This document shows, in pieces, positions 48,077 to 62,692 of a stretch of DNA of 64,000 nucleotides; within the stretch, counting starts at the first letter, position 1, and each line of letters begins with the position of its first letter. The DNA comes from Nitrospiraceae bacterium. Lineage in GTDB: Bacteria > Nitrospirota > Nitrospiria > Nitrospirales > Nitrospiraceae. Location of the stretch: assembly GCA_050246315.1 (NCBI GenBank), contig JBFWWG010000002.1, positions 364,811-428,810 on the forward strand. Reading direction: 5' to 3'. The notes below the pieces were generated by a model that worked only from the letters and a program-made list of their open reading frames with translations, had not been told where the DNA came from and searched no databases. Made by a program: the position numbers and the translations under genes.

Positions 48077-49389
48077 ATCCCTAGCGCCTCCCTTGCTTGG
48101 TCAAACGTCAACCACATGGCGCCTCCACCAGGAGTAGGGCGAATCATGCTGGCACCACGTCCAGTAGAGATCACCCTCGCAGGTACGCCAAGTTCAAAAG
48201 CGCCTGCGCACACAACAATATCAGACTTCATTGCGGTCGTTGGCTCTCTGTACTGGGCCTGTACATCCTTCAGCCCACGCCCAGCTCCGTTGACCACGCG
48301 GATCGATTGGCCACGGTACTGCAGCCAGGCGCCCAACTTTGTCGCTCCTCCGTTCAACAACATAACGTGAGTCGACGCCGCCTGAGTAGCATTCGGGAGT
48401 GGCGCTTTCAGTGTCGCCGCGCGAGTGTATGGTACCCCCTCGGCATCGCGGCGGAGATTGTAGAGATCCTCCACGTCCAATGCATCAAACGGGGCCGAAA
48501 CCTGAACGACTCCCCCATCCGCCTCCACCGAGTCTTTCCCTAGTTTGTAGAACCTTCGGGCCCAGGCCTTGGAATACGCTGTACGCAACTCTTCGAGTGC
48601 GTCGACGCCTGACGCCTGAACGTGCTCGAATACTCGGCTCAAATTGTACATTTTCTCCCAGAGCTTCGGCGCCTTGCTCTGCAGGCCGGCCATAGGGCTC
48701 GGGTCGATCACGGTGACGGAACTCGCGTTGTCAATCGTAAACGCTTCGGCTAAGACGTCGTTCAAGTATCCCCAATCTGTCCAAAAGCCCACGACGACTA
48801 GGTGTTTCCCAGGCAAGTTGAGTTTCATCCATTGCGAACAACTCGACAATCGGTCCTGAATGGCCGGCTCAGCGAGTTGGCTCTGCGTCCACAACGTGTT
48901 TTCACGGTCGCGCTGGAGACACCCATGGAATTTGACTAAAGGATTAGCGCAGGCAGTGAATTTACCGGCTTCAAGTCCCGAAAGGGCCCCCTGCATTGCG
49001 ACCCTCTGTTCCTCCGCCCAGCGCTCGATCATTGCATCGAAGTTCGCGGACAGAGCGGAATGCGCACCACGACTGATCAAGAAATCGGCGATCGCGGCAT
49101 GACCCTTATTGGGGGGCCCAACCAGATCGTTCCAGGGTACGAGTCCGATGAAGACCTTGAAGTCCCCTCTCGCGTGGAAATGCCCCGCAAGTTGATTAAC
49201 GTCGTCCCGAAATACTGGATCGAGGGTTTCATTCGGGGACCACGCGTCATAACAGGTTTGTGATATGCGGATGGAAGACGGAAGGTCGCTCGGCGCTGGC
49301 ATGGACAAGCCGGCCCCACAAAGGAACATTAGCGAGTTGGTTTCGATCGCGCCCAGCAATCTTGTTGTCAATTCGGCACTCAGATGCAT
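48073..49389 (-). CDS. SIR2-like effector (LmuA-like, putative NADase)
   Basis: FLCGAGLS..PSDLP, SANFD, KFHG and VVGF motifs. Confidence 0.78.
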   Translation of the reverse strand: MHLSAELTTRLLGAIETNSLMFLCGAGLSMPAPSDLPSSIRISQTCYDAWSPNETLDPVFRDDVNQLAGHFHARGDFKVFIGLVPWNDLVGPPNKGHAAIADFLISRGAHSALSANFDAMIERWAEEQRVAMQGALSGLEAGKFTACANPLVKFHGCLQRDRENTLWTQSQLAEPAIQDRLSSCSQWMKLNLPGKHLVVVGFWTDWGYLNDVLAEAFTIDNASSVTVIDPSPMAGLQSKAPKLWEKMYNLSRVFEHVQASGVDALEELRTAYSKAWARRFYKLGKDSVEADGGVVQVSAPFDALDVEDLYNLRRDAEGVPYTRAATLKAPLPNATQAASTHVMLLNGGATKLGAWLQYRGQSIRVVNGAGRGLKDVQAQYREPTTAMKSDIVVCAGAFELGVPARVISTGRGASMIRPTPGGGAMWLTFDQAREALGI

Positions 49390-49775
49390 TTTCCCTCAAT
49401 CCCCGTGCTTCTGCCGCAAAGAAAACATACCGTCGACTTTGGATACAGCCAACCATTTGTTCTTGGACCGGCCCGTAGCATAAGTCAAAATTCCAAAGAA
49501 TTCGACAGCTCTATTGGTAGGGAGATGTATGGATTGCGGTCAATAAGGGCGGGAGACTGTTAAGGGTTGTTCTTAGGGAGGTCGAGGAATTCCCCGGTCG
49601 TATATCGGTCGCATAGCCGAGCGATTTTCGGGTTATTCTATCTCACTTGATCTCACTCCTGCTCTGCACACAACTCGTTGAGTTTCTGCAAGACAACGTG
49701 TGAAGCCCGCGCAAACATTGAAGGCGCTGAATTGGTCACAATCAAATCCCGGCTTTGGCACCGTATCATAGTTCC

Positions 49776-50510
49776 TCAGTATCCGTCGTAGAGCATGTTG
49801 CGGCGATGTTCGAGCTCGGCCTGCTTTGACCCGCGCACGAAGAAGATACGGGGGATGATGAGGGAGACAGCGGTACTGAAGACGACGAACCAGCTCGACA
49901 GAAGGAGCACTTCGCGGACATTCAGGATCCACGTTTGCACCTCCAGGGCGGTAGCCTGATTCATCAGGACCCGCCACGCCGGCCACAACTGTTCGGACTT
50001 GGCATGCACCCAATCCGGCGTGAGTAAGCCGTGCAAGCCATGGAAGAGCAGAAATATCAGGATCACCTTCAGGATATTGAACATGACCATCGCGCTGTAA
50101 ATGCTGTCGATGGCTTGCCGGCACGCCTTCCCATAGTAGCAGTTGCCCAGATTGACCCCGATCATGACGTTGTAGCCCAATCCGTACGCCATCGCGATGA
50201 GGACGGAGAAGAGTTGATCAAATAGGTTCGGGGTGAGCGTTCCGAAGATCGGCACCATATTCGACAACACCCCCATACTCACCGGCACGAACAAGGCGCT
50301 GATCAAACCATCTGCCAGTGCCCCTTTCACGCCCACTTCAAAATACGCGATCCGCCGGTCCAGCAGAAGATAGTTCTCAGGAATCTCTCGCCCCGTCTTG
50401 ACGACCGTCGCGAGGATCTGAATCTCGGAGATCGCCTCGATGAGGCTCCGGGGCTTGGCCCTGGCCATGCCCTCTGCAAACAATGGCCCCGGACGTCCCC
50501 CTTTCTCCAT
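49776..50510 (-). CDS. Multi-pass membrane protein at the end of the transfer operon
   Basis: About four hydrophobic segments; co-oriented and tightly spaced with upstream genes. Confidence 0.65.
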   Translation of the reverse strand: MEKGGRPGPLFAEGMARAKPRSLIEAISEIQILATVVKTGREIPENYLLLDRRIAYFEVGVKGALADGLISALFVPVSMGVLSNMVPIFGTLTPNLFDQLFSVLIAMAYGLGYNVMIGVNLGNCYYGKACRQAIDSIYSAMVMFNILKVILIFLLFHGLHGLLTPDWVHAKSEQLWPAWRVLMNQATALEVQTWILNVREVLLLSSWFVVFSTAVSLIIPRIFFVRGSKQAELEHRRNMLYDGY

Positions 50511-50513
50511 GGC

Positions 50514-50765
50514 TCACCCCCCGCCGAAAAATCGTGTGACCGAAGTCACATAGGCGAGCAGGATCGTCAGCGCATAGAAGAAGATCCCGATTGCCAGCCG
50601 CTGTTTGTAGGCTCCGTACCAGAACGCGAACCCGAGGCACGTCACTGCCAGCACCCGAGCGACCACACCCTGGAACAAGGTCACGAAGATCCAGTCCCAC
50701 CAGGCCAGATATTCTTCCAGCGTCATGTAGGAGAGCGGGTTCAGATAATCGATGAGATTCTCCAT
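50514..50765 (-). CDS. Small two-TM protein, possibly TrbC/VirB2 pilin-like
   Basis: 83 aa; QGVVARVLAV followed by two hydrophobic helices; transfer-gene context. Confidence 0.45.
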   Translation of the reverse strand: MENLIDYLNPLSYMTLEEYLAWWDWIFVTLFQGVVARVLAVTCLGFAFWYGAYKQRLAIGIFFYALTILLAYVTSVTRFFGGG

Positions 50766-50780
50766 GACCTGCGGGTGCTC

Positions 50781-52118
50781 CTAGGAGATCGCTCGCAGCT
50801 CGACAACGATTTGGAGGATCCCGGACTTGCGGGCCTCAAGGTCCGATGCCGGCACATTGAAGACTTCGAGCTTGATCGGGACGAAATAATTTCGAGGTGG
50901 GAGCGTATTTCTCCGTCTCGGATTGTTCATGATGATCTGATAGCTCCGCCCATAGAATCCCTCCCCGATCGGTACTGCAAGGACGTCAGCACGTCGTACA
51001 TCATCGACGATGCGACGCAATGCCTTCTCGCGATCGGAAAGCCGGATCAAAGACAGATCGACCACCTTGCGCTCCGTGGACAAGCGCCGAGCCGCGTCGA
51101 GGAGTAGGTCGGGATGCACGTAGACTGTATCCTTTATGGAGATGGCGGACCACCTCCCGCCCCGCTGGAGTTGGTTGATCTTCGGTTCCATCAGTTCAAG
51201 CAGGCAGGGAACCGAGAACCAGCTTTCCCACGGCTGCACTTTCAATTCCTTGGAGAAGGCTGCCACTTCCAATTCTCGCGCCCGTCCATCGGCTTGCCGC
51301 AGCAGGGCGTCGAACTGGCCTTTGCTCGCACGATGATGACCTCGGATCGCATCCAACGACTCCTTCAGCCACGGAAGGTCAGAGCCTGCAAAGAGTTCCT
51401 GCACCTTCATCGCGCTCACGGCGGGATGGTCACCCATCGTGTAGATCCCACTTGCGCGGAACACCGGAATCTTTCCCAGATCATGGCCCAGAGCGGCCAC
51501 CAGCATCTTCGGGACCAGCGGTTCGTAGTCGCGATACGTTTCCTTGAGACTCTTCATCGCCATTAGTGTGACGCGATGGGTGTGCTCCTTCAGCGTCACT
51601 TTCGCCAATGTGTCGCGGATACTGTACAGATCGCTGTGTTCCTCATCCTTCTCCGGCGCAGTGACAACGACTGACGGACAGTGCCCGTACTGCTCCAGCA
51701 CCTTCACCATTTCCATGAGGGGCACCCACACACGCTGTGCCTCGAGAATGGCCTGATGCGGCGCCAGCAGATCCCGCACCAAGGCGGAGGACTGAAGGGC
51801 TTCCGGTCGGAGAGGCTGGCTCACAGGTCGGGATTGATCCGGAGGCATGTCGGAAGAGGCGTCCTCCTTCGATTCAGGAGTATCACCATCCAGAGCCACG
51901 TCCGATTCGGTCTCCATCGCGTGATCGTTCGCCTGCCCCTCCTCCGGCTGGACCTCAATCCTCATGAAATCGACGTTCAAAGGTAGCCACAGGTCCTTGG
52001 CGAGCTCGGACAAATCGATTTCAATCGGGTCAGGCCCATGAGGATACGGCGGCGCCAAGCTGACTGATTGCTTCCATCCCAATCGGGTTACCACCGCACT
52101 CAGCCATCGCTTGACCAT
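50781..52118 (-). CDS. HD-domain protein, possible MOBH/TraI_2-type relaxase
   Basis: LKEHT..AALGHDLGK..DH..IRGHH..QAD metal-binding motifs, in a transfer operon. Confidence 0.65.
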   Translation of the reverse strand: MVKRWLSAVVTRLGWKQSVSLAPPYPHGPDPIEIDLSELAKDLWLPLNVDFMRIEVQPEEGQANDHAMETESDVALDGDTPESKEDASSDMPPDQSRPVSQPLRPEALQSSALVRDLLAPHQAILEAQRVWVPLMEMVKVLEQYGHCPSVVVTAPEKDEEHSDLYSIRDTLAKVTLKEHTHRVTLMAMKSLKETYRDYEPLVPKMLVAALGHDLGKIPVFRASGIYTMGDHPAVSAMKVQELFAGSDLPWLKESLDAIRGHHRASKGQFDALLRQADGRARELEVAAFSKELKVQPWESWFSVPCLLELMEPKINQLQRGGRWSAISIKDTVYVHPDLLLDAARRLSTERKVVDLSLIRLSDREKALRRIVDDVRRADVLAVPIGEGFYGRSYQIIMNNPRRRNTLPPRNYFVPIKLEVFNVPASDLEARKSGILQIVVELRAIS

Positions 52119-52121
52119 GGG

Positions 52122-52580
52122 CTAGGCCCATTGTTCAGGCAACGGAACAGGTTCAATCGCGCGTCGCGTCACGCGGACGGGAATCGCTCGCCCGAACAGG
52201 GCCACGTCCACCACCCCCTGTTCCCCGTCCCACACTCGCAAGAACCCGATCACCGGCGCACTCACCCAATGAGCAATGCGCACGAGGTCTCCTGGAGCGA
52301 ACGATCCCTCACGAGGACGGGCTGGTGCGGCCAACGCCCCCACATCGCACAGATCCTCGATCGGCAGCACTCTCTTGACACCAGGAAACTTCGATACCGC
52401 CTCAATCTTTGTCCGATCCAACTGGCACACCACATAGCCCTTCACGAGCTCAGTCATCCGTGCGGTATCAAGTCGCTGTAGGTATCGCATCACCCGATTC
52501 TCATGGCCTGGAACGACCTCAATCCCGACGACCTTCACTTCCGCGTCTTCCACCGACCCGCCTCGACAGCCGCCAGTCAC
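52122..52580 (-). CDS. nusG: NusG paralog (compact NGN plus KOW)
   Basis: VVPGHENRV, KGYVVC and FPGVKRVL in the NGN; FAPGDLVRI..VDVALFGRAIPV in the KOW. Confidence 0.75.
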   Translation of the reverse strand: MTGGCRGGSVEDAEVKVVGIEVVPGHENRVMRYLQRLDTARMTELVKGYVVCQLDRTKIEAVSKFPGVKRVLPIEDLCDVGALAAPARPREGSFAPGDLVRIAHWVSAPVIGFLRVWDGEQGVVDVALFGRAIPVRVTRRAIEPVPLPEQWA

Positions 52581-52734
52581 TGTTCAACCATTCAAGCTCA
52601 TGTCCGGCCGTCTATAGACTGTTCTCCTACGACCCGCTTAGATTGGCCGGCCTCCCGGACACAGGTGCGATCATGCGCTGGAGCTGGTCAAACCCGTCCG
52701 GCAAGTGCAGAAGCAAGACCGGCCTGATCGCAGG

Positions 52735-53289
52735 TCATCGGCGTGTCTTCCTCACCTTGTCCAGATGAACAAGCGCGCGATAGATCTTCCACACGTACTG
52801 AGTCAGCTGCTTCGAGCCGTTGTACCGTCCGATCGCCACCCAGGTGTTTCCAAACAGATCGAGCTTCTGCCGGAGCACGAAGGCGGCCCACTGCAAATTG
52901 ACACAGGGATCCAGAAGATAAACGGGATGCACGCGATACTGTTCCAGATTGCGACTGTTGATCTGCCCCAGTCCTACATCAAAATTGGCCCCCTGCTGCC
53001 ATAAGCGACTGACCAGCTCCGCTGCTGTTGTATAAGACAGTCTGCCGCGAGACTCGCCCACGCCTTGGCGATTGACCCCGACCGCAAGGGGATTCCCATC
53101 GCTCTCCACGTGCACGATAGCCTCGAGAAGAACAGGCGAGACGTGGTATCGCTGCGCGGCCTCCTGAATGCAGCGATGGTTCACGTACCAGTAGGTGTCC
53201 CGACCGAGGCGTGATCCGCCGATTGCCTCGGCTCCTATTGGAACCAGCGCGATGACCAGGAGCGCACCAACCAGAACTATGTGCACCAT
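52735..53289 (-). CDS. Lytic transglycosylase (VirB1/SLT-like)
   Basis: Signal peptide; AIVHVES, DVGLGQINS, DPCVNL and AIGRYNG motifs. Confidence 0.9.
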   Translation of the reverse strand: MVHIVLVGALLVIALVPIGAEAIGGSRLGRDTYWYVNHRCIQEAAQRYHVSPVLLEAIVHVESDGNPLAVGVNRQGVGESRGRLSYTTAAELVSRLWQQGANFDVGLGQINSRNLEQYRVHPVYLLDPCVNLQWAAFVLRQKLDLFGNTWVAIGRYNGSKQLTQYVWKIYRALVHLDKVRKTRR

Positions 53290-53307
53290 GCCGTTCGGGC
53301 CTCTGCA

Positions 53308-55263
53308 CTAACACTTTCCGCTGTAGGCGCAGATCTTCGCATTCATGTCGGAGGCCACAGCCGCAGGATCGATATTCGCGTTGACGTGCACGTACCACTC
53401 CGTGAAATCCATGGCGGCAAAATTCAACGAGGAGAATTGCGCGATGCTGAACCCGCTGCAGTCAGGCGCGTCGGCAGAACCCCAGGGCCAACCGATTTGC
53501 GCGCGGCCTTGTTCCTGGACAATGCGGGCCAATTCCGACTTGAAATCACAGTACACCTGCTCCTTCCTGGTACAGACCTTCGCGAATCCAAAACTGACCC
53601 ACTCCACACAGCGAGTCCCCACGTAGTGCGCCTTGTACAGCTGCCGGTCCTTCGCCAACTGGACTTCCTCGTCCGAGCAGCTGCCCAGTAATCTCGTCGG
53701 ATCGCTGGCATCGCAGCAGTCGATGATCGGCCGAATGATCGGGTTGTAATCACAGGCCATCCGTGTTCCGTTGAACACGCGAAGGTTGGTGGTATCCCAA
53801 TCGTTCTCGACATCTTTGACCAACTGCAGATAGGTGGCAGAGAGGGCGAGATACTGGTTGGGAGGGGTTGACGTATCGACACAGAATGGAACGTAGCTTC
53901 CGGGAACACCGCATTGGTTGCACTGGGCCATCGTCACCGTCCGACTGCAGGTAGGAGTGGACGCGCAGGAGAAGGTATTCTCATAGACCTGGCACCGACC
54001 GAAGCTGTCAGGAACACAAGTGGAGCTGATCTGGCTGCAACCCTTCTCCAGGAGAGGTTGACAAGTGTCCGGAGAAGACGAGCTGGTCATCCACTGTTCC
54101 TGCTCCCTCCAGCAGGCAATATCTGTGATCGTAAAGACCGTTCCGTCTGAACTCGTGATCTGACGAGCGGCGGAGTCTAGACAACGGGAAGACTCGAACA
54201 CCCAGGACGACCTCAAGGGGGCACAACTATCAGTGATCACGTCCTTTCGAACCTGCACGTCATAGGCGAGGGTCATCTGTATGCCACCGGATTGCGCTCC
54301 GCCCGCAGGGCAGAGGGCGAGCAGAGCAGACTGTCCGGGACCAAGGGTCGCACTTCCAAACCCCGTGCAGCCACCGTTCTGCCAGCCGCTGATGGAGGCA
54401 GAGAACGATTCTGTGAGGATCGTCTCACCGGAGCCTAAGGACGCGGCGTAATTGAACGTGCCCAGCACATGCCAGCCTCCTCCATGCCCACAGTTCTTAT
54501 GCCAGATTCCTTCCGGGCCCATGTCCAAGTATTCAACCGAGTAGCTGCCGGGACCAATTTGGCGGACTTGGGCATAGAGGTAGTGATCACTGCACCAGCC
54601 GGCAGGACCAAAACTGCCGGTCTGGGTCTTGTGCGTGATCGAGACAAAGGTATTCACCTCACACACGGCCGTTTCCACACCGGGACTTTGGCAGCTCTGA
54701 ACTGATTCAGGTCCAGCCGTGTATTCCACACAGGTCGGGACGTCCACGCAGGTCCCGCTGAGTCCGGGTGACGGGGTGATGCTGGAGGCCACCGCCTCGG
54801 CGGTCTTGACCGGAGCGGTCGTGCTCACATCCCATCCGTCCTTTGATGATTTCTGGTCCTGCAGCGTCGAATAAGTCGGATCCGTCACCGTCGCGTTGGT
54901 TGCATCCGCATTGAGCGGGGCGATATCCCCGCTGTTGCTGAAATACCCCTCCTGCGGCGCTCCCGAACAGCCGGAGCTCGTACAGCCGGTAGCGCCGCCG
55001 TACTGAGGTGTCTTCGTCATATTCGGCGCCAAGTTTCCAGTGCTGACCGAACCAGCGCCTTGCATTTCGCCCAACACACATTGAGCCCGTGTATAGGCAT
55101 CGGCGATGCTGTCGCATGGCCCCACCCCCGTGGCCGGAGTCACCAAGGCCATCACGCAGCTTGCGGACAGCGCCGCCCCAACCATGACCGATCTTGACCG
55201 GCTGAGCGGTACGGCAGGCAATGATGATCTGCCCGAGACGAATTGGAATGGCAGGCGCTGCAT
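53308..55263 (-). CDS. traN: Mating-pair stabilisation protein TraN
   Basis: Cys-rich; C-terminal YCDFKSELARIVQEQGRAQIG.WG....PDCSGFS..QFS.LNF..MDFTEW signature. Confidence 0.9.
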   Translation of the reverse strand: MQRLPFQFVSGRSSLPAVPLSRSRSVMVGAALSASCVMALVTPATGVGPCDSIADAYTRAQCVLGEMQGAGSVSTGNLAPNMTKTPQYGGATGCTSSGCSGAPQEGYFSNSGDIAPLNADATNATVTDPTYSTLQDQKSSKDGWDVSTTAPVKTAEAVASSITPSPGLSGTCVDVPTCVEYTAGPESVQSCQSPGVETAVCEVNTFVSITHKTQTGSFGPAGWCSDHYLYAQVRQIGPGSYSVEYLDMGPEGIWHKNCGHGGGWHVLGTFNYAASLGSGETILTESFSASISGWQNGGCTGFGSATLGPGQSALLALCPAGGAQSGGIQMTLAYDVQVRKDVITDSCAPLRSSWVFESSRCLDSAARQITSSDGTVFTITDIACWREQEQWMTSSSSPDTCQPLLEKGCSQISSTCVPDSFGRCQVYENTFSCASTPTCSRTVTMAQCNQCGVPGSYVPFCVDTSTPPNQYLALSATYLQLVKDVENDWDTTNLRVFNGTRMACDYNPIIRPIIDCCDASDPTRLLGSCSDEEVQLAKDRQLYKAHYVGTRCVEWVSFGFAKVCTRKEQVYCDFKSELARIVQEQGRAQIGWPWGSADAPDCSGFSIAQFSSLNFAAMDFTEWYVHVNANIDPAAVASDMNAKICAYSGKC

Positions 55264-55274
55264 CGAGCCCTTCC

Positions 55275-55757
55275 TTAGCTTCTCAGAATCGGTATCGTCG
55301 GCCGCACGGCCGCTCGCGCGGAACTCGCCGTCATCTCGCTCACGACTCGTTTGGACTCCTCCGACAACGGAAGCACACCGTCTCTTGCCTCACACTCACC
55401 CACTTCTCGCCTGATAAATCGTACGGCCGTTCCAAATCCCAAGACCTGGGTCATGGCCATCCCTTTGAACGGGACCGGTGAGACTTCCACCACCACCCCG
55501 ATCACCGCATCGGCACCGAGCTCCCACGCCTGGTCCTGCAGACCATCGAATACCTTCTCCATGGCCTTGCGAGCCGGCTTATCGTACGTGCTCACCCGGC
55601 CACCCAAGATGTCCATAATCCGCGCGATATAGTCGCGAAACGTTCCCAATCCCACCGTGAGGATCTCCACCACCAGCCCTAACGATTCGACCTCGCGGCC
55701 TAGATAACTCTGCGTACTGAGGAACTCGATGTCCTTCTTATCTCGCTTTGCCATCAC
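55275..55757 (-). CDS. YbjQ/UPF0145-family protein
   Basis: DILGGR...Y, ELGADAVIGV and FGTAVR motifs. Confidence 0.85.
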   Translation of the reverse strand: MMAKRDKKDIEFLSTQSYLGREVESLGLVVEILTVGLGTFRDYIARIMDILGGRVSTYDKPARKAMEKVFDGLQDQAWELGADAVIGVVVEVSPVPFKGMAMTQVLGFGTAVRFIRREVGECEARDGVLPLSEESKRVVSEMTASSARAAVRPTIPILRS

Positions 55758-56781
55758 CGTTCTTCTCCCCTTTTTCCGGGACGGTGCTGTCGGCAGCCGG
55801 CTGAGGCGAGAAGGTCAGTGTCCCAGGTGGCGGTGCGGCAAGAGGCTCCGCTGGAGGACCAATCCGTGAGCCAGACCCATCAGTCGGAATAGACATCCCT
55901 TTCGCCGCAGTGCCGTCTTTCGGACCCACAACCGCCTGGGCGGCCGCTTTCCTCTCTTGTTCGCTTTTCTCGATCCCCTGATCTCGGACGGCACTCGCGG
56001 TTGTTTCCGTAGGAGAGCGCGGCCCCTTGCCATCGACAGTTCCCTGAGCAATCTTGGACGCCGGTGTGATCGGACCGGTCTTGACGGGCGCAGCGGATTT
56101 CCCGGCTCCTCTCCCGACGACCGACGGGTCGGCCTTTACTCCAAGTTGCCGCATCGCCTGTTCCACGGCGGGAGACTCGGTGTTCTTGCCCTTTTTGAGT
56201 TCATCCCCGGTGTCAGACCCAGCCGTGGTGTTAGGGCCCGCCTTCGAGACAGTTTCCTGTGGCGCATTCCCGGCCCTATCCTCTCCGTCCTTCACGCCGG
56301 CCTCCTTGCGCAGCTCCGGGGCTCTGGCTTTGGGATCACGCGAGGCCACCGGTTTCAGCCGGACCATCAGGGCGCCCATCCTGGCGATCAAGGACTCGAC
56401 CCGATTCGTGAGCATCACATTCGTCTCGGCTAGCAGGCTGAGCTGATCCAGCACCTTGCCGAACTTCTGATCCAGCGCAGAGACCCGCGTCTCCTGCGAT
56501 GCCAGCTTGCCTGTGAGCAGTCTGGCGTCATCGCGAGCACGTGCGACTTCTGTCTTGGTCTGGTCCTGTTGCAGCCGCAGCGTGCCCTGCTCCTTGCTCA
56601 CGTTCGAGTAGGCCCGATGAACCGCATCCACGCGCTGCTGCAAATCGTCTTTTTCCGTTTCCCACTCTGTTTTCACTTCCTTGAGATGCTCGTACTGATT
56701 CTGGACGCGCTCATACTCCCCACTGCTCACGCATCCGACCAGCAGCATCGGAATGACACTCCAGATCCATTGACGCATCAT
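55738..56781 (-). CDS. Coiled-coil lipoprotein with a disordered tail
   Basis: Lipobox LVGC, heptad region and P/A/G/K-rich tail. Confidence 0.7.
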   Translation of the reverse strand: MMRQWIWSVIPMLLVGCVSSGEYERVQNQYEHLKEVKTEWETEKDDLQQRVDAVHRAYSNVSKEQGTLRLQQDQTKTEVARARDDARLLTGKLASQETRVSALDQKFGKVLDQLSLLAETNVMLTNRVESLIARMGALMVRLKPVASRDPKARAPELRKEAGVKDGEDRAGNAPQETVSKAGPNTTAGSDTGDELKKGKNTESPAVEQAMRQLGVKADPSVVGRGAGKSAAPVKTGPITPASKIAQGTVDGKGPRSPTETTASAVRDQGIEKSEQERKAAAQAVVGPKDGTAAKGMSIPTDGSGSRIGPPAEPLAAPPPGTLTFSPQPAADSTVPEKGEKNGDGKAR

Positions 56782-56836
56782 GCCTTCCTCCCCCTTCTTC
56801 ACCATCACATGGTCTCGATGTTGACTCCTGTCCGGC

Positions 56837-57574
56837 TCACGTCGTCGCCCGAGGAGGAACAGGTCCTCCCGCAGTTGCGGGCGTCTGAGCGTCTGGGTTC
56901 GGACGCTCACGAAACACGTCCTCCGCTTCGCGTGGCGTGCGATAGGGCAGTTCCACCAGTGCGCAGAACTCAGCGATCAATTCGTGGAGGCGCCTGATCA
57001 GTTCGTGAATCTTCGTGAACAGATGCTCCGCCTGCGCCAAATCGTCGCAACTCATGCGTGTATGCAGAATCACCCCATCCAGCTTCTCCGCCACCCGCGA
57101 CACCTTCTTCGTTTCTTCTGATCGCGGGGTGATCACTCGCGCATTCCGTTGTCCGGCAAGGGTGAGCCGATACTGATAGTTCAGGGCCGGCGCCGGTCCG
57201 AAATCCTGCTCACTGACCCCCATCGCCTTTAACAACTCCTGTCCCCTGCTCACCCACTCATGGATACGATCCAGCTGCCCCTGCACTTCACTGACGGAGA
57301 GGGAATGCCCCGCGCTGAGCCGGAGCCGATTGACGGCCTTATCCAAAGGAAACAGCATCCCCACGATGACCCTCCCCTCAGGCGTGCGAGGCAGGAGCAA
57401 CAGGCTCTGGGGATCTTGCAGCCGTTCGCGGTTGTGCTCGGCCCGTTCCTCCGGGCTGGGCCGTCCGCGCATCGGGCGTCTTCCCTGACCAGCGAGACCT
57501 GCCCGCCCATTCGGCTCCCGCTCTTCCTTCCTCGACGAACCTGGTTGTCCATTTTGTTGTATTGCCGTTGCCAT
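56837..57574 (-). CDS. Hypothetical protein, possibly an AcaB/DUF1845-like conjugation regulator
   Basis: GAGGAGG RBS; internal duplication (LLPRTPEGRV..LDKAV and ITPRSEETKK..LDGVI). Family call is tentative. Confidence 0.45.
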   Translation of the reverse strand: MATAIQQNGQPGSSRKEEREPNGRAGLAGQGRRPMRGRPSPEERAEHNRERLQDPQSLLLLPRTPEGRVIVGMLFPLDKAVNRLRLSAGHSLSVSEVQGQLDRIHEWVSRGQELLKAMGVSEQDFGPAPALNYQYRLTLAGQRNARVITPRSEETKKVSRVAEKLDGVILHTRMSCDDLAQAEHLFTKIHELIRRLHELIAEFCALVELPYRTPREAEDVFRERPNPDAQTPATAGGPVPPRATT

Positions 57575-57601
57575 AAGAATCCTCCTCTCCCGGACCGACT
57601 G

Positions 57602-58228
57602 TTACGGTTCTGTCCTCAGCTCGATCGCCATCGACGTCAGCTTGCTCGCGAGCGCGACGTTCATGCCGCCCTTGCCCAGGAAGTATCCTTTGCACTCGGC
57701 CGGCACCAGGACCCGCGCCATCTGCTCCTCCCTGAACACATCGATCCTTCGGATGCGATCCACCGGTGCCGGTGCCAGCGCATTGCGAATGAATCGGCCC
57801 AGGTCCGTCGAGTACCGGACAAACGACACCATCAGTCGGGTATAGCTGGCGTAGCTCTGACGGTAAGGCACACACAACTTCACCGGATCCACTCCCTCTT
57901 CGCTCTCCACGGCGATTTTGACAAACGGCGAGCCGAGGCCCGTGGCGACCCGACGTATCCGGACTTCACCAGCCTCCAACACAGGACGGAGGATGGATTC
58001 CGAAATACGGCGGATGTAATGGGGACAGCGCTGGGACAGGACCGGATACATCTCACCCAGCCGGTACACCGCTGCTGAGATCGTGTCCTTGACCCGATAG
58101 GGCCGGTCAGCATACTGCTTCGGAAGCACGGCGAAAGGCTGCGTGCCGTTGATCAGGATGAGGTAACTGTCCCGATCCGGTAAGGCCTTCACAACCCGAC
58201 CCAGCACGAAGTCCCCGATCTTCTCCAT
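57602..58228 (-). CDS. nusA: NusA paralog (S1-KH-KH only, no N-terminal domain)
   Basis: S1-like GRVVK..FAVLPK..VLSQ; KH1 VRIRRVA..VKIAVES..VDPVKLCV; FIRNALAPA; KH2 FLGKGGMNVALASKLT. Confidence 0.82.
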   Translation of the reverse strand: MEKIGDFVLGRVVKALPDRDSYLILINGTQPFAVLPKQYADRPYRVKDTISAAVYRLGEMYPVLSQRCPHYIRRISESILRPVLEAGEVRIRRVATGLGSPFVKIAVESEEGVDPVKLCVPYRQSYASYTRLMVSFVRYSTDLGRFIRNALAPAPVDRIRRIDVFREEQMARVLVPAECKGYFLGKGGMNVALASKLTSMAIELRTEP

Positions 58229-58403
58229 CGAGCCAGTTTCCTTCCCCAACCCCTGTATTACTCCCGCCGCTCGCGGGGACTTTCCTCACCACGATGCACC
58301 CCTGCCTGCCCACGGACCCTTCGGCGCTGGCTTGCGTTGCACATCCATTCCTGTATTAGTTCTGGAGGAAGCAACGCATCGTCGGGTTGCGATCGAGGCA
58401 CCA

Positions 58404-59699
58404 ATGGGTCCTCAAAATCAGGTTTCCACTGAGCAACTACGGGTCCTCCAGACATTATTCCCCTGGTTGGCGTTCATTCCGCTGGTGCTGACGCACTGCG
58501 GGCCGATTGAAACACCCGTCAGCCTCGACCACGTTCATCAGGTGCCGGTCATTCACCACACTGAGCCTCTAGGCCCTCCGGAACTCCGGATCTCCGCGCA
58601 TACGGATGGCCTTGGGTGGTCCGTCCAGCCGGTTCAACGGATCCGACGGTATGTCGATGTGACGCAGCAGGAAACGTGGAAAACCAGGGTCTATCCGGCT
58701 GCGAAAACCTGGAGAATTCCAAAATTCGTGGCAGGATGGGTCACATGTCCGACGTGGGGAATTTTAGGGATGACGGGACTCGCCTTCGCTGAACCCGGCG
58801 CCCCGATGTGGCGCCGATCGGCCCTCTATGAACCTTGCTCGCTGGCCAGCGGGGGTGAGGCCTACTCCTCCGAATCAACGATGATGCGAACCGATGTCAC
58901 GCTGGATCGCCGGATTGAAGAGGAGGATCAGCACGTGACGACTGGTTCTCTTGCGCTCGTGTGGCAACTCCCTGGCAAGGATCCTCTCGGCATCGACATT
59001 CCTCTGAGCCCGGAGCAGACCACAATCATGTTCCGGGCTCGCTGGATCGCAGACCTGCTTATTCGGCAGGGCATCGAGATCACCGATCAGCTTTCCGGCC
59101 ACGCAGAGGTTCAGCTACAGCAACCAGGAGCCCCTCTCATCTCTCATCCGATCCCGTTGACCACCGTGATGCTCCGCGCCGCAATCGAGCAGGAAGCGGC
59201 ACGCGCTCCCGCAGGCCGGTGGCCATCGGCGATCAGAATCCGAACCGTCGTGGAAACTGATGGAAAGGGTGCTGCTCCTGAAACGCGCGCGCTCGCAACG
59301 CATCTGCTACGACACCTTGCTCGGTCGGGTCTGGCTGTCGTCGTGCGCGACGAGCTTCTCGCCGAATCCGAAGACCTCCTGACGGCTCAACAACAAGGCC
59401 GCTATAGGGACTCGGCGCGGAACGGAATCGGGCAATGGTCTGGCGCAACCCTTCTCGTTCACGTGTCTGCCCGGAATCTCCACGAGCAGGGCTACCTCGC
59501 TACGACGAGCATCGCTTCCATCGAGACCGGCGAGGTTCTCGCTCATCTCCTCGTGGAAGCCCCGCCCGGACAGTGGGCCGAGTTTCTCGACACCATGAGC
59601 GCCCGGATCCTCGACATCGTGATGCCCGCAGGTCGCCCACAGGGGGATATCGCGCGCCACAATCATGCGAGGCGTGAGGGATGGCTCATCACACAATGA
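58404..59699 (+). CDS. Putative lipoprotein with a CsgG-like C-terminal domain (paralog 1)
   Basis: LTHC lipobox-like motif; VVVRDEL..IGQWSGATLLV..IETGEVL. Confidence 0.6.
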   Translation: MGPQNQVSTEQLRVLQTLFPWLAFIPLVLTHCGPIETPVSLDHVHQVPVIHHTEPLGPPELRISAHTDGLGWSVQPVQRIRRYVDVTQQETWKTRVYPAAKTWRIPKFVAGWVTCPTWGILGMTGLAFAEPGAPMWRRSALYEPCSLASGGEAYSSESTMMRTDVTLDRRIEEEDQHVTTGSLALVWQLPGKDPLGIDIPLSPEQTTIMFRARWIADLLIRQGIEITDQLSGHAEVQLQQPGAPLISHPIPLTTVMLRAAIEQEAARAPAGRWPSAIRIRTVVETDGKGAAPETRALATHLLRHLARSGLAVVVRDELLAESEDLLTAQQQGRYRDSARNGIGQWSGATLLVHVSARNLHEQGYLATTSIASIETGEVLAHLLVEAPPGQWAEFLDTMSARILDIVMPAGRPQGDIARHNHARREGWLITQ

Positions 59700-60838
59700 C
59701 CACCAGCCGCCTCCTTCCCCTCCTTATCAGCCTCCTCCTCGCGGGATGTGCAGAACTTGTCCCTGAGGATGCAGGCCCTCCCCATACCCGCACGTTCGAG
59801 CTCGACCGCTATCCCACCGGCCACGTTCGGATCAGCACAGAAGTGCACCCAGATCATCTGGGCTGGACGCTCGCCATCGAACAAGCGACAGCCGTCACCA
59901 TCGCCATCCAGGAAGAAACGCCACAGCAGTACCGCCGCTACGTTTTTTCGCCCCTCTCGATCGTTCCCGGACTTTTCCAATGTCCCTACGGCTTGATCAA
60001 GTACGCGCTCACGCTCGGCTACGCTTCGGACGAGCCGATGCGCTACGGCTGCTGGAGGCTCATCATGAAAGAACCCCTTCAGGGATCCATTTCTCTGCCC
60101 AGCAACATTCACCGCTCCCTCGAGCTTACGGAGCGATGGGAACCGGTTAAGGGAGGATCGATAGACGTGAAATGGGAAGGGCAGACAGATCTACTCGCGA
60201 CCTATGCGATCTCCGTCGAGGTACCAGTCCTTCGACTGGCACATCTCGTGCGGAACGATCAGGGGCGGCCTATATCAGAGGAAGCGCAAGCAGGCAGATT
60301 GGAAGTGAACTATAGGCAGGGACCACATACCGCCACAACGATGCTCGACGTCTCACGGAAACAGTTCACCAAAGCTTCCAAGTCCGCGACCCAATCCATT
60401 GCGGCCGAGCGCTGGCCTCATCCGCTCGTCGTTCAGGTCGGTACGCTGCAAGGCCTGCCTCCTGTCCTCGAAGAAGTCATCAAGGCAGCTCTTGCCAGAA
60501 ACTTCTTGCAGGCACAGATCTGTTTCGTCGCTGATGATCCCACGAAGGCGAGAATCACTGAAGAACAACGTTTCCAACTTAGCGGCCGGGTCCATGACAG
60601 CAAACAAGTCGCGCTCGGCCAATGGATCCCGGCCACCGTTCTGATCACTGGCAGTCTCGACACCACCCAGACCGCACCCGAAGTCGTCCTGCAAGTATCG
60701 ACGGTCCCTTCGGCAGAAGTCCTTGGAACGATCCGCCTGCCAGTCACTCCCACGACCGCATTCCCTATGGCATCAATACTCTCCGAGGACCTGCGGCTCC
60801 TCACCGCCCATGCCCCGAAAACGCCTTGCAGAAACTGA
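59696..60838 (+). CDS. Lipoprotein with a CsgG-like C-terminal domain (paralog 2)
   Basis: LAGC lipobox; EEQRFQLSG..LGQWIPATVLITGSL..SAEVL; ATGA overlap with paralog 1. Confidence 0.65.
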   Translation: MTTSRLLPLLISLLLAGCAELVPEDAGPPHTRTFELDRYPTGHVRISTEVHPDHLGWTLAIEQATAVTIAIQEETPQQYRRYVFSPLSIVPGLFQCPYGLIKYALTLGYASDEPMRYGCWRLIMKEPLQGSISLPSNIHRSLELTERWEPVKGGSIDVKWEGQTDLLATYAISVEVPVLRLAHLVRNDQGRPISEEAQAGRLEVNYRQGPHTATTMLDVSRKQFTKASKSATQSIAAERWPHPLVVQVGTLQGLPPVLEEVIKAALARNFLQAQICFVADDPTKARITEEQRFQLSGRVHDSKQVALGQWIPATVLITGSLDTTQTAPEVVLQVSTVPSAEVLGTIRLPVTPTTAFPMASILSEDLRLLTAHAPKTPCRN

Positions 60839-60876
60839 GAATCCTTCCCATGACTTAGCCATGGAAAATCGTGTGT

Positions 60877-60948
60877 ATCTAACGTTGCCGTAAGTGGCTG
60901 GGGTGCAAGCAGGCGAGCCCCCCGGTCCGCTGTAGCAGGAAGTCCGTG
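60877..60948 (-). repeat. Degenerate terminal attC site
   Basis: ATCTAAC..AGTGGCTGGGG/CCCCGGTCCGCT..GTCCGTG on the + strand; one core has decayed. Confidence 0.55.
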
Positions 60949-60952
60949 GGCA

Positions 60953-61297
60953 TCACGACTGCCACATAGGCAGACCGAGCCTACAAAAGAGTGACTTCAC
61001 GTGCGCCTTGATCGCACACTTGGCAGTGTGCACCAGAAAGAAGCCACGCCCGATGAAGGCGTTTACGGTCGGGCATGGTCTGCCCAACTGCCTAAGGACG
61101 TCAAATAGGCCGCGGCGCAAGTTATCAGACGGATCCGTGTAGAAGTGACGACCGTTCTCTGGTGGCGCGACACCAACGAACAGAACACGAACGGGATCTG
61201 GTGACTCGATGCCCAGTGGGTACAAGGGGCCAGGCGGACATTCGACGTCGACTCCAGGGAGGACTGCGCCGCAGCGGGCACAGCTTATCACGTCCAT
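60953..61297 (-). pseudogene. Cassette: truncated uracil-DNA-glycosylase-like gene
   Basis: VLFVGVAPP..HFY and HTAKC motifs, but only 114 aa with the C-terminal half of the fold missing. Confidence 0.5.
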
Positions 61298-61353
61298 CTG
61301 AATCTGCGCTCAGCAATCCCTCACTGCTCCCACCTGACCCGGCCCTGTTGTGT

Positions 61354-61411
61354 GCCGAACGCGCAGGATTACCCGCGGCCGTAGGCCGTCGGGTGAATCC
61401 TGTAGTTAGCA
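61354..61411 (-). repeat. attC site (58 bp)
   Basis: GCCGAAC..GGATTACCCG/CGGGTGAATCC..GTTAGCA. Confidence 0.85.
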
Positions 61412-61437
61412 AGCCGTCCGGTGTTCGTGCGCATCTG

Positions 61438-62016
61438 TCACGGCAGGTCCTGAACTCGGACCGAGAAATCCATGCTGATGCCGTCGAGGCAATCGCCGAT
61501 TAACGCGACCGTTGCGCCGAGTGCCTTGAGACCAATAACCAGGTGGTCAAAGATGGGGCGCCCGTTGCGATCACGGCCGTAGCGAAAGCTCTCCGAGTTT
61601 GGATCGAGCTGGCAGAGATCGTTGACGCACTCTGCGATTGTGACGAATTGCGCGGGCAACGAAGCTCCGTAGAGCGAGCCGCACAGCTGATGGACCTCCG
61701 TCCAGAGTCGGTCAAGATCGTGTCCGTGTCGCCATTCGGCTCGTTGACCCGATAGCACCAGCCCGTAGACGATGATGTCCTTGAAGCGCAGTTCAAGATA
61801 GTGCCGAAAGAGGAAGAGTATCGGAAGTACGACACTGTCTCGTTCGCCTGCGGTTCCCTCCGGGTCCGCTAGCAATCGCCGGAGCAGTATTTCTGCCGCC
61901 TGCCGATACCCGGCTGCGTGAAAGTCGCCGACCCCTGTCCAGTGGTCGAGCACCGCATTGAACCTGATATCATGATCCGCGGTCAGAACTCGAAGTGGAT
62001 TCGAACTCGCCATCAC
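61438..62016 (-). CDS. Cassette: HEPN-like hypothetical protein
   Basis: PILFLFRHYLELRFK, HGHDL..LW and DPNSESFRY motifs. Confidence 0.65.
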   Translation of the reverse strand: MMASSNPLRVLTADHDIRFNAVLDHWTGVGDFHAAGYRQAAEILLRRLLADPEGTAGERDSVVLPILFLFRHYLELRFKDIIVYGLVLSGQRAEWRHGHDLDRLWTEVHQLCGSLYGASLPAQFVTIAECVNDLCQLDPNSESFRYGRDRNGRPIFDHLVIGLKALGATVALIGDCLDGISMDFSVRVQDLP

Positions 62017-62060
62017 CTACCACCCAGAAGCGCGGTCATCCTGGCACAGATGTTCTGTCT

Positions 62061-62126
62061 TGCTAACGAACGAGGTAACCGGCTCGGCCGCTTGCTGCCG
62101 AGTCCGAGTTGAGCGATTGGTTAGGC
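62061..62126 (-). repeat. attC site (66 bp)
   Basis: TGCTAAC..CGGCTCGGC/GCCGAGTCCG..GTTAGGC. Confidence 0.85.
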
Positions 62127-62142
62127 AACGCGGGCACCTGTG

Positions 62143-62607: not shown

Positions 62608-62613
62608 GGCGTT

Positions 62614-62688: not shown

Positions 62689-62692
62689 GGCA

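Follow-up and report, generated by a model that had tools for sequence, protein, structure and literature searches.

The genes of the transfer module

The window, i.e. the whole stretch of 64,000 nucleotides that was analysed, contains a NusA-like and a NusG-like gene, both inside an integrative conjugative element (ICE) of ∼113 kb on a Nitrospira chromosome. The ICE carries a coupling protein, a tyrosine integrase and a type IV secretion system (T4SS) of the F type (MPF-F), with genes for TraE, TraK, TraB, TraV, TraC, TrbC, TraU, TraF, TraH, TraG and TraN. Three Pfam relaxase families (TraI_2, TrwC and Relaxase) were searched in the whole genome, and none gave a match at E≤0.01. Ten conserved genes including traN run from 58228 down to 49776 (Table 1). 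The genes for TraE through TraG have the same orientation and lie outside the window, upstream of the ten-gene run, from which they are separated by a divergent gene pair (58332-60838). A first-pass annotation, made from the sequence, had called the NusA-like gene the first gene of the transfer operon; this is correct for the TraN-containing run of ten genes, but not for the transfer region as a whole, since TraE-TraG lie upstream.

Table 1. Features of the ten-gene module and its leader, with positions in the window
Feature	Position	Strand	Description
Second motif copy, CTAATACAGGA	58349-58359	(-)	
GTAATAC motif	58255..58261	(-)	Begins 33 nt before the ATG of the NusA-like gene; noticed post hoc
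NusA-like paralog	57602..58228	(-)	208 aa; S1, KH1 (GxxG lost), KH2 (GKGG)
g245	56837..57574	(-)	245 aa; basic, probably disordered N-terminus; conserved core; no family found
Coiled-coil protein	55738..56910	(-)	390 aa; conserved in the module; weak coiled-coil and lipoprotein matches only
YbjQ-family protein	55275..55757	(-)	160 aa; Pfam YbjQ_1, E 1.3e-17
TraN, F-type mating-pair stabilisation	53308..55263	(-)	Pfam F_T4SS_TraN, E 9.9e-43; TIGR02750, E 1.4e-48
Lytic transglycosylase (SLT, VirB1-like)	52735..53289	(-)	Pfam SLT, E 1.4e-13
Compact NusG-like protein	52122..52553	(-)	143 aa from the probable start; NGN-like N-domain (∼66 aa), linker, NusG-type KOW, conserved C-terminal tail
HD-domain protein	50781..52118	(-)	445 aa; Pfam HD, E 3.4e-6; candidate nuclease/nickase
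g83 and g244	49776..50765	(-)	Two conserved genes closing the ten-gene module (synteny)

The spacing within the module is uneven. A gap of 181 nt between the SLT gene and the NusG-like gene precedes the latter (fold z-score −0.30, no better than shuffles), and the HD gene begins 3 nt past the NusG-like stop codon. Because the NusG-like gene is thus found in a tight sub-operon with the HD gene, after the gap, the NusA-like and NusG-like genes may belong to different units. Contigs from RNA libraries (at least 95% identity; four runs from three studies) cover 30 of the 30 bins of 49500-59000, and one assembled contig of 1071 nt spans the junction between g245 and the NusA-like gene. As these are contigs only, and as DNA carry-over is possible, the coverage shows neither transcription nor a single transcript. 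RNA-library contigs of related strains diverge at 49774.

For the HD-domain protein, a MobH-type relaxase is no more than a lead: there is no TraI_2 match, and the similarity is limited to weak matches to the HD domains of Cas3'' (four of six homologs) and Cas10 (five of six), at E values of 4e-4 to 6e-3. A comparison with the PDB gave no informative match for this protein.

A NusA paralog without the N-terminal domain

The product of the first gene in the module is homologous to NusA. It matches Pfam KH_5 at residues 103-159 (28.9 bits, with a cut-off of 27) and the NCBIfam NusA model TIGR01953 at E 5.6e-17. In the latter alignment, residues 2-207 correspond to model positions 129-338 of 340 only, and therefore S1, KH1 and KH2 are present while the N-terminal domain is absent. 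Pfam NusA_N, which matches the host NusA at E 1.1e-39, gives no match in this protein, and the acidic repeats are missing as well. A profile of the family finds NusA structures in the PDB (1hh2 at E 2.3e-14 and 1k0r at E 1.3e-13). The AlphaFold2 (AF2) model has a pLDDT of 80.4 and a pTM of 0.76, with the S1 part modelled at pLDDT 55-67; in a Foldseek search with this model, the best 16 matches listed (ranks 1-17) are all bacterial NusA, with 1hh2 on top (E 6.5e-13). HMM searches and structure prediction had been set as a check in advance, and KH_5, TIGR01953, the PDB profile and Foldseek together support the S1-KH-KH fold without N-terminal domain that the first-pass annotation had described.

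That annotation had also described the KH1 loop as replaced and the KH2 loop as intact, and this holds both for the protein and for its family. In a BLASTP alignment with the host NusA (28% identity), in which the S1 part pairs with host residues 135-192, the host's KH1 'GIKG' is replaced by 'PYRQ', and KH2 has 'GKGG' where the host has 'GKNG'. Across the family, the GxxG is present in 0 of 38 members in KH1 and in 33 of 38 in KH2. Compared with bacterial NusA (TIGR01953; 1hh2, 1k0r/2asb, 6flq), the S1-KH1-KH2 body, an ALAPAP junction motif and the KH2 GxxG are shared, whereas the N-terminal domain and the KH1 GxxG are lost, the gene lies outside rimP-nusA-infB, and the sequences form a separate clade on a long stem. 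The N-terminal domain binds the flap tip of RNA polymerase, and no other part of NusA is known to hold it on the polymerase. When set against the bacterial NusA orthologous group, the protein has the S1 and two KH domains, but neither NusA_N, nor GxxG in both KH domains, nor the clade or gene context of that group. Archaeal NusA and crenarchaeal NusA2 (2cxc, 9fjl, 9f9u) are likewise without the bacterial N-terminal domain, and are matched by Foldseek at E 1.8e-5 to 6.6e-5. They do, however, consist of KH domains only, without S1, and are chromosomal housekeeping genes of archaea; the NusA-like protein is closer to bacterial NusA. PF26594 is listed for relatives of the NusA-like protein; we take it to be a NusA KH-region family, because it is co-listed with NusA_N and KH_5 in true NusA.

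In a phylogenetic tree, 44 short NusA-like sequences form a clade (support 1.0) apart from 70 full-length NusA sequences including the host's own, with a stem of 1.42 substitutions per site. An exhaustive search ranks 51 cluster representatives of 102-273 aa first, and a full-length NusA appears only at E 4.7e-13. The dN/dS of the NusA-like gene is 0.08 (two relatives), the lowest among eight genes compared and tied with g244 (0.08-0.09); g83 has 0.13 and the NusG-like gene 0.28. Given the short relatives, the separate clade and the low dN/dS, the NusA-like proteins are a family and not a remnant. The comparison with host NusA by phylogeny and the test for selection, both proposed beforehand, thus came out in favour of a distinct paralog under purifying selection, and the NusG-like gene is under purifying selection as well. 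Two simpler origins are rejected: a recent duplication of the host nusA, by the 28% identity and the separate clade, and decay into a pseudogene, by the dN/dS of both genes and the family-wide conservation. It had also been noted that both genes lack their housekeeping neighbours, and this is the case in the genome: the housekeeping nusA is found on contig C11 of the host genome (G000), between rimP and infB, and the housekeeping nusG on contig C5, while the paralogs are found at conjugation loci. A tblastn search of a plasmid collection with the NusA-like protein gave 15 records, all below 60% identity and, where annotated, matching the record's nusA; the same search with the NusG-like protein gave no match. 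In PHROGs, none of seven proteins was matched.

A compact NusG-like protein

The NusG-like open reading frame spans 52122-52580. Its start is probably the GTG at 52553, as a length of 143 aa prevails among the 27 homolog clusters. Pfam, NCBIfam and PHROGs contain no matching family. The KOW domain is of the NusG type: the profile lists 14 PDB sequences at E up to 10, the first 13 of which are NusG with the match in the KOW (E 0.0054-0.13), and the 14th is an unrelated protein at E 0.14. An hhalign comparison with the host NusG gives an alignment confined to the KOW (E 2.3e-4), and VIA-align superposes it on the C-terminal domain of E. coli NusG with Z 7.1 and rmsd 2.4 over 56 residues at 30% identity. 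In the C-terminal tail that follows, P139 and W142 are invariant in the alignment of the broader of two NusG-like profiles (A4).

The N-terminal domain is more difficult to place. In the AF2 model (pLDDT 75.7), elements in the order b-a-b-b-a-b-a precede a five-strand barrel, and Foldseek gives 23 matches at E≤1e-3; the 19 of these that are listed are all NusG, RfaH or Spt5, over both domains (best E 7.2e-7). When residues 1-66 are compared alone with VIA-align, RAM/Lrp domains score Z 8.2-8.5 (rmsd 2.5-2.7), which ties with two-domain NusG at Z 8.2-8.3. Since the domain scores equally against both, it is assigned to NGN at the level of the predicted fold only; Pfam, NCBIfam and hhalign against the host NusG give no NGN signal at the sequence level. 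Of the compact NusG paralog claimed by the first-pass annotation, then, the KOW domain stands on sequence evidence, and the NGN domain is matched as a fold.

The tie also allows for a protein that does not bind polymerase in the manner of NusG, in which a KOW/Tudor-like barrel would be joined to a RAM/ACT-like ligand-binding or oligomerisation domain, and in which the pairing of NusA and NusG would be a coincidence of folds. The missing NGN family match and the KOW-only hhalign alignment agree with this. Against it are the listed Foldseek matches, which extend over both domains, and the KOW profile, for which the only PDB match besides NusG is unrelated. A secondary HMMER alignment also places the N-terminal G-x-E-x-R-V on the equivalent segment of E. 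coli NusG (at 2.5 bits, not significant), and four cluster representatives carry a NusG label from JGI's pipeline. Taken together, this reading is unlikely.

Gene neighbourhoods and co-occurrence

Wherever the flanking sequence of a metagenome locus is long enough (13 of 13 loci), the NusA-like gene stands at the head of a run of F-type transfer genes or close to it, and the same holds in six of six other genomes. Each of the 13 metagenome loci that extend at least 4 kb downstream has two or more F-type T4SS genes on the same strand. In three of the genomes (G300, G062 and G160), the order is the NusA-like gene, a g245 homolog, and then SLT, DsbC, TraB, TraV, TraC or TraF. The proposed link of this family to conjugation loci is therefore well borne out. 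The next gene downstream is a g245 homolog in 29 of 33 metagenome loci (36 were returned, and L074, L075 and L077 were dropped as ordinary full-length NusA) and in eight of eight genome loci, so that the constant neighbour of the NusA-like gene is g245 and not the NusG-like gene. For g245 itself there is no usable match in the protein atlas, and no family in Pfam, NCBIfam or PHROGs; its profile matches mainly designed coiled coils and other helical proteins in the PDB. A complex prediction for the NusA-like protein with g245 gave a score of 0.00 against a mark of 0.32, which speaks neither for nor against a complex.

Co-occurrence was assessed in 401 genomes of the phylum with the profile A4, which replaced a narrower one (A2) that matched the window's own genome only (1/401). 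In seven of the eight genomes with a NusA-like gene, the same contig also carries a compact NusG-like gene, and seven of the eight with a compact NusG-like gene also have a NusA-like gene. The exceptions are G160, where a NusA-like but no NusG-like gene was found, and G286, where the reverse is the case. The position of the NusG-like gene varies: in Nitrospirales it lies in the SLT-HD interval, G062 has it next to parM, and G300 next to a coupling-protein-like gene. The pairing that the first-pass annotation had proposed is thus retained at the level of the element, but the NusG-like gene shifts its position and the constant partner is g245. The co-occurrence may reflect only the shared descent of one element family.

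These neighbourhoods also bear on a different role. The S1 and KH folds are as apt to bind single-stranded DNA as RNA, and the NusA-like protein and g245 could be accessories of the relaxosome or of T-strand processing, with the S1-KH-KH body passing single-stranded DNA or oriT hairpins to the coupling protein, the HD protein as nickase, and the NusG-like protein as regulator of a separate sub-operon. The genome has no match to the three relaxase families, and the HD protein weakly resembles the Cas3'' and Cas10 HD domains, which cut single-stranded DNA. In metagenome loci L056 and L062, a coupling-protein gene adjoins the NusA-like gene on its upstream side and is divergent to it; in G300, the start of a coupling-protein-like ATPase gene is overlapped by the compact NusG-like gene; and in G062 and G160, genes for VRR-NUC nucleases follow the pair of NusA-like gene and g245. 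In most loci, however, this pair heads mating-pore genes (TraK, TraB, TraV, TraC) and not DNA-processing genes, the coupling-protein gene in the window's ICE is ∼38 kb away, and the HD similarity is weak at the E values given above. Nor is a NusA-type S1-KH-KH body known to us from any accessory protein of conjugation, which further counts against this role. DNA processing is a serious rival, albeit a rather unlikely one; if the NusA-like protein does handle transfer DNA, it would represent a new class of conjugation accessory factor.

A motif in the leaders

The leader of the NusA-like gene contains the motif GTAATAC, which was picked by eye after looking at the data, i.e. post hoc. It occurs eight times in the window where 1.12 are expected, a number reached in 0 of 100 shuffles, and the element has 12.4 copies per 100 kb where the remaining genome, at similar G+C, has 2.55. 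Of 14 copies, seven sit 7-214 nt upstream of the start of a co-oriented ORF, and an eighth is found just inside the called start of parM. Across 19 lineages, TAATAC is present upstream of the NusA-like gene on the forward strand in nine and on the reverse strand in one. The motif is a candidate leader or control element, or promoter element, of the ICE; it could simply be a promoter element, and bears no known resemblance to the ops sequence of E. coli. Leaders upstream of the NusA-like genes do not align beyond close relatives, and scans of leader and intergenic regions for promoters and terminators are at chance. As the number of terminator-like sequences in 45000-64000 is at chance (16 found, 13.3 expected), a need for read-through is not demonstrated.

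With a leader motif of this kind next to its gene, the NusA-like protein, together with g245, might also work off the polymerase, as a post-transcriptional RNA regulator or chaperone acting on mRNA stability, antisense pairing or translation, similar to FinO/ProQ or KhpA/KhpB. RNA chaperones control F-like transfer genes, the protein has no polymerase-docking domain, its one intact GxxG, in KH2, is the one kept in the family, and the motif is strand-specific. This reading is nevertheless quite unlikely: neither an antisense RNA nor a structured leader was detected (the gap between the SLT and NusG-like genes folds at the level of shuffles, and the leaders are not alignable), and the regular occurrence of a NusG-type factor on these elements speaks for co-transcriptional action.

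Proposed transcription control and relation to known systems

Specialised NusG paralogs are the textbook means by which horizontally acquired operons escape host termination and silencing. Mobile elements and operons with such paralogs have RfaH, ActX/PrfaH (IncX), TraB (IncI), LoaP or UpxY. Bacterial NusA, to our knowledge, has so far been treated as a single-copy housekeeping protein. We give a probability of roughly 0.45 to the reading that diverged, element-borne paralogs of NusA and NusG tune the transcription of long transfer operons. This builds on the folds, homology, conservation, linkage to conjugation genes and co-occurrence described above, and from these we infer each mechanistic step. 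The NusG-like protein would act like RfaH, ActX/PrfaH or TraB, with an N-terminal domain that rides RNA polymerase, suppressing both pauses and termination in element transcripts, and a KOW domain and conserved tail that recruit a partner. The NusA-like protein, an S1-KH-KH body with an intact GxxG in KH2 alone, presumably cannot dock on the polymerase flap unaided; it would work with its invariant neighbour g245 and bind the nascent leader RNA of transfer operons, with the strand-specific GTAATAC motif as candidate recognition site. There it could either deliver a modifying factor, or antagonise NusA by occupying the sites that host NusA uses for hairpin termination. Opposing NusA is a proven route to read-through, because LoaP antiterminates by antagonising NusA (PMC12691694).

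In its most specific form, this control of transcription would be exerted by an elongation-control kit of Nitrospirota conjugative elements, made up of a polymerase-riding mini-NusG, an anchorless NusA body, g245 as the obligate link and a AGTAATACA-like leader motif that targets all three. We consider such a kit doubtful; if it exists, a mobile element that supplies a NusA of its own, rather than borrowing or opposing that of the host, would here be seen for the first time. The first-pass annotation knew of no characterised NusA paralog on a mobile element, and a search of the literature likewise found no description of one, while element-borne copies of NusG are already known. With a conserved and strongly selected NusA-derived family leading conjugation operons, the paralog principle would apply to NusA as well, and this would point to a new layer of control over horizontal gene transfer in the nitrifiers of soil and wastewater. 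The protein would also be a natural anchorless NusA, useful for dissecting the RNA-binding body alone, and the g245 partner and the leader motif are concrete handles for experiments.

Among the NusG-type systems, the likeness is that of a small two-domain protein encoded within or beside the long operon that it is expected to serve, and conjugation operons are described as targets (PMC7819879, PMC11880322). The first of these sources reports that RfaH activates the F transfer operon and that ActX, a close relative of RfaH, is encoded within plasmid pilus operons (PMC7819879); the second, that a deletion of prfaH abolishes IncX transfer (PMC11880322). The NusG-like protein described here differs from RfaH, ActX, TraB, LoaP and UpxY in being much more compact (with an N-domain of ∼66 aa), in having no sequence-level NGN signal and an extra conserved C-terminal tail, in that no ops-like site is established, in its host phylum, Nitrospirota, and in being accompanied by a NusA paralog.

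On the side of antitermination, conAn1/conAn2 is described as a bipartite, element-encoded system of processive antitermination at the start of Gram-positive conjugation operons (PMC8191782), and the logic shared with the ICE is the position in the operon only. In lambda N (with NusA, NusB, NusE and NusG at nut) and LoaP, as in the reading preferred here, an element or operon alters termination by engaging or opposing NusA on leader RNA (PMC12691694), with the antiterminator gene at the 5' end of the operon. Both use the host NusA, whereas the ICE carries a NusA-derived protein of its own together with the g245 partner; no nut, boxA or hairpin element was identified. The structures 6gov and 5ms0 are among the Foldseek fold matches.

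A NusA-derived family in Nitrospirota

The protein that heads the conserved transfer module (208 amino acids) is a shortened relative of NusA. In Pfam it matches the NusA KH domain with 28.9 bits against a gathering score of 27, and the NusA equivalog model aligns to it at positions 129–338 of 340 only (E 5.6e-17), so its N-terminus coincides with the start of NusA's S1 domain. NusA crystal structures are matched at E 2e-14 by a profile built from six members of the family. The AlphaFold model has an overall pLDDT of 80.4, lower in the S1 part (55–67), and a Foldseek search with it returns bacterial NusA in the top 16 rows (ranks 1–17), followed by archaeal NusA and NusA2. The genome's own NusA, a 388 amino acid protein encoded between rimP and infB, is 28% identical over residues 135–337. 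In the pairwise alignment the host's KH1 loop GIKG is PYRQ in the NusA-like protein and the KH2 loop GKGG is kept; across the family, the GxxG is seen in KH1 in 0 of 38 members and in KH2 in 33 of 38. The first-pass annotation had described an S1-KH-KH protein lacking the N-terminal domain, with a replaced KH1 GxxG and an intact KH2 loop, and every detail of this that could be tested is right. It had also noted that neither gene has its housekeeping neighbours; the host nusG is found elsewhere, on contig C5.

Searched exhaustively with this protein by phmmer, 1.84 billion cluster representatives yield 1447 proteins at E ≤ 1e-3. The top 51 matches are all 102–273 amino acids long, and the first full-length NusA (560 amino acids) appears at E 4.7e-13. 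In a FastTree phylogeny of the S1-KH-KH region (209 trimmed columns), 44 short sequences, including those of three distant genomes (G300, G062 and G160), form one clade with support 1.0 and a stem of 1.42 substitutions per site; none of the 70 full-length NusA sequences, which were sampled as the best matches to the query and include that of the host, falls inside it. All named members that were looked up, such as those of N. moscoviensis NSP M-1 (on its chromosome) and Nitrospira sp. CR1.3, are from Nitrospirota, and the JGI pipeline labels members as "transcription antitermination factor NusA-like protein". There is no sign of relaxed selection: pairwise dN/dS is 0.084 and 0.085 against N. 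moscoviensis and CR1.3, tied with g244 (the last gene of the module described below) as the lowest among eight module genes compared.

A conserved module at the head of F-type transfer operons

The DNA of the window (positions 364811–428810 of contig C2) is mostly that of a mobile element, in a source genome of 4.39 Mb on 30 contigs, and homologs at 85–96% identity are from Nitrospira. Because a run of genes from TraE to TraG is followed by a coupling protein, a tyrosine integrase and then ordinary chromosomal genes, the element is an integrative conjugative element (ICE) with an F-type secretion system. Its size is roughly 113 kb.

Within it, ten genes follow each other in a fixed order: NusA-like, g245 (encoding a 245 amino acid protein), a coiled-coil protein, YbjQ, TraN, a lytic transglycosylase (SLT), NusG-like, HD-445 (a 445 amino acid HD-domain protein), g83 and g244. 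The same order is found in N. moscoviensis, CR1.3 and two genomes of a 401-genome phylum sample (G273 and G234, where the contig end cuts the NusA-like gene), and with small losses in two more (G285 and G225). In N. moscoviensis NSP M-1 the NusA-like protein is 96% and the NusG-like protein 86% identical to those of the window. Spacing is tight throughout, with the one exception of the 181 nt that precede the NusG-like gene. The points at which RNA-library contigs from related strains diverge are exactly 58245 and 49774, which agrees with a conserved module between variable cargo.

The NusA-like family is present in 7 of the 401 genomes, in addition to the cut copy. In the three most distant ones (G300, G062 and G160), the NusA-like gene comes first and a g245 homolog second in a run that continues with SLT, DsbC, TraB, TraV, TraC or TraF genes. 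A metagenome scan returned 36 loci, and 33 were kept after three with ordinary NusA were dropped, many of them near-identical copies of this element and thus not independent. A g245 homolog lies directly downstream of the NusA-like gene in 29 of the 33; of the four exceptions, three have a contig end within 62 nt and one (L078) is frameshifted. Where 4 kb or more of downstream sequence is available (13 metagenome loci), there are always at least two F-type secretion genes on the same strand, so the linkage to conjugation on which the first-pass annotation depended holds.

The g245 protein has no match to a family (Pfam, NCBIfam, PHROGs) and no neighbour in the protein atlas, and its PDB matches are uninformative. 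Its N-terminus is basic and of low complexity, and D78, G89, P150 and R151 are invariant in its conserved core. A literature search, mainly of openly accessible papers, turned up no bacterial NusA paralog encoded by a mobile element, and a NusA-derived family with a constant partner, g245, heading F-type transfer operons appears to be undescribed. This family is the interesting part of the finding, with a function that is inferred.

A compact NusG-like protein

In the case of the NusG-like gene, the open reading frame extends to 52580, and the start is probably the GTG at 52553, as most of 27 homolog clusters are 143 amino acids long (NITMOv2_3087 of N. moscoviensis is an example of a homolog). 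There is no curated family match in Pfam, NCBIfam or PHROG. The last 55 residues of the protein form a KOW domain of the NusG type, which aligns to the C-terminal domain of E. coli NusG with a Z of 7.1 (VIA-align, 30% identity). The best 13 of 14 listed matches in a PDB profile search are NusG (E 0.0054–0.13), and the host NusG is aligned by hhalign with E 2.3e-4. The model (pLDDT 75.7) has an N-domain of topology b-a-b-b-a-b-a, and Foldseek gives 23 matches at E ≤ 1e-3, of which the 19 listed are NusG, RfaH or Spt5 without exception, with both domains covered. The isolated 66-residue N-domain resembles RAM/Lrp domains equally well and has no significant sequence match to NGN. For these reasons we put membership of the NusG family at roughly 80%, and the predicted N-domain is a candidate polymerase-binding domain, unproven as such. 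Past the KOW, P139 and W142 are invariant in the operon-type subfamily, inside an LPExW-like tail. The dN/dS of the gene is 0.28. This kind of protein is already known; the very compact form is new.

Do the two paralogs belong together?

The operon-type NusG-like gene is found in 5 of the 401 genomes, in all five in the same run as the NusA-like gene. A second subtype, equally compact, occurs in three (G062, G300 and G286). In G062 it is next to a ParM-like gene, and 32 kb separate it from the NusA-like gene; in G300, where the NusA-like gene is on the same contig at a distance of 38 kb, it overlaps the start of a gene for a coupling-protein-like ATPase. G286 has the housekeeping NusA only, and in G160, a fragmented genome, no NusG-like gene was found. 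With both subtypes counted, seven of eight genomes with the NusA-like gene have a compact NusG-like gene, and seven of eight with a compact NusG-like gene have the NusA-like gene. Co-occurrence is strong, and it may be no more than a sign that these elements descend from one family. The NusG-like gene changes position, which speaks against an obligatory pairing; NusA-like and g245 are the pair that does not vary. The original observation is confirmed, and its interpretation, a candidate antitermination system made of the two paralogs, is partly supported.

A recurrent motif in element leaders

The motif GTAATAC (or TAATAC) was picked post hoc while aligning otherwise unalignable NusA-like leaders, where 17 of 27 loci have a forward TAATAC in the 300 nt upstream. 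When the close group is collapsed, it is forward in 9 of 19 lineages against reverse in 1 of 19, the background being 0.096 per 300 nt on both strands. The window has eight copies of GTAATAC against 1.12 expected, a number reached by 0 of 100 shuffles. Density in the element is about five times that elsewhere (12.4 against 2.55 per 100 kb) at nearly equal G+C, and the densest 50-kb bins of the genome are the element's. Of the 14 element copies, seven precede a co-oriented ORF start by 7–214 nt and one more is just inside the called parM start. Leaders with the motif include those of the NusA-like run, the gene preceding TraE, the small gene preceding the integrase and an HTH regulator. This fits a candidate element-specific promoter element, or an ops-like loading or RNA recognition site. 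A region of contig C8 also has a raised density (5 per 50 kb, the median being 1) and may be a second related mobile element.

Possible functions

By analogy with RfaH, ActX/PrfaH and TraB (PMC7819879, PMC11880322), the NusG-like protein would most likely support processive transcription of element operons. The NusA-like protein keeps the nucleic-acid-binding body without the polymerase anchor, and it would therefore either depend on a bridging partner, most obviously g245, or compete with host NusA. The latter idea is made concrete by LoaP, which was recently reported to antiterminate purely via NusA antagonism (PMC12691694). Two results count against antitermination: terminator-like sites between 45000 and 64000 are at chance level, and no RNA structure was found in the gap before the NusG-like gene. 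The main rival is that the NusA-like protein has a role in DNA processing. Coupling-protein genes adjoin its gene in two metagenome loci, HD-445 belongs to a family weakly resembling Cas3''/Cas10 HD nucleases, and the whole genome has no match to the TraI_2, TrwC or Relaxase families. HD-445, whose gene starts 3 nt past the NusG-like stop codon, may be an unrecognised nickase of the element.

Other gene content

Features of the element and its surroundings (window coordinates unless a retrieved stretch, L, or a contig of the source genome, G000, is named)
Feature	Position	Strand	Content or remark
SOS mutagenesis cassette	3156-8114	+	window left; LexA-like S24 peptidase with HTH domain, ImuB-like Y-family polymerase, DnaE2-like polymerase
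CBASS-type defence operon	10034-13516	+	TRIP13-like AAA ATPase, uncharacterised gene, bacterial HORMA, SMODS cyclase, DUF6602 effector candidate
Large defence-like cluster	18720-27631	-	SNF2 helicase with PLD nuclease domain, Eco57I/MmeI-type methylase, KAP-family NTPase; adjoined by Schlafen/AlbA_2, AIG2-like and SNase genes
RadC, SSB, ParM-like actin	within window		
Gene cluster downstream of module	45495-49389	-	SIR2-like protein, 179-aa protein, SMC/Rad50-like ATPase
Ten-gene module	58228 to 49776	-	
HD-445	50781-52118	-	
NusG-like	52122-52553	-	ORF 52122-52580
TraN, lytic transglycosylase	within window		
NusA-like	57602-58228	-	
Paralogous gene pair	58332-60838	+	uncharacterised; 455 and 385 aa
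TraE, TraK, TraB, DsbC, TraV, TraC, S26 peptidase, TrbC, TraU, TraF, TraH, TraG	just right of window	same strand	
Coupling protein, ParB-like, recombination-directionality-factor-like protein	farther right, beyond TraE-TraG run		
Class II-like ribonucleotide reductase	L039 13514-15769	+	element right part
DnaN beta clamp	L040 5380-6525	+	element's own; right part
Tyrosine integrase	L040 7701-8936	+	right border of element
GTAATAC (AGTAATACA-like), strand-specific	58255-58261(-), 58349-58359(-), 41787(+), 43443(-), 43744(+)		
GTAATAC copies	L006 19685(-); L039 7128(-), 10812(+); L040 7267(+)		
GTAATAC-dense region	G000:C8:50001-125000		

The cluster downstream of the module is variable cargo, since related strains diverge from 49774 onward, and it probably has a defence function. 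The paralogous gene pair, divergent from the NusA-like gene, is kept in N. moscoviensis, CR1.3 and G225, and in G225 it is preceded by a gene whose product contains a T4 gp19 tail-tube domain.
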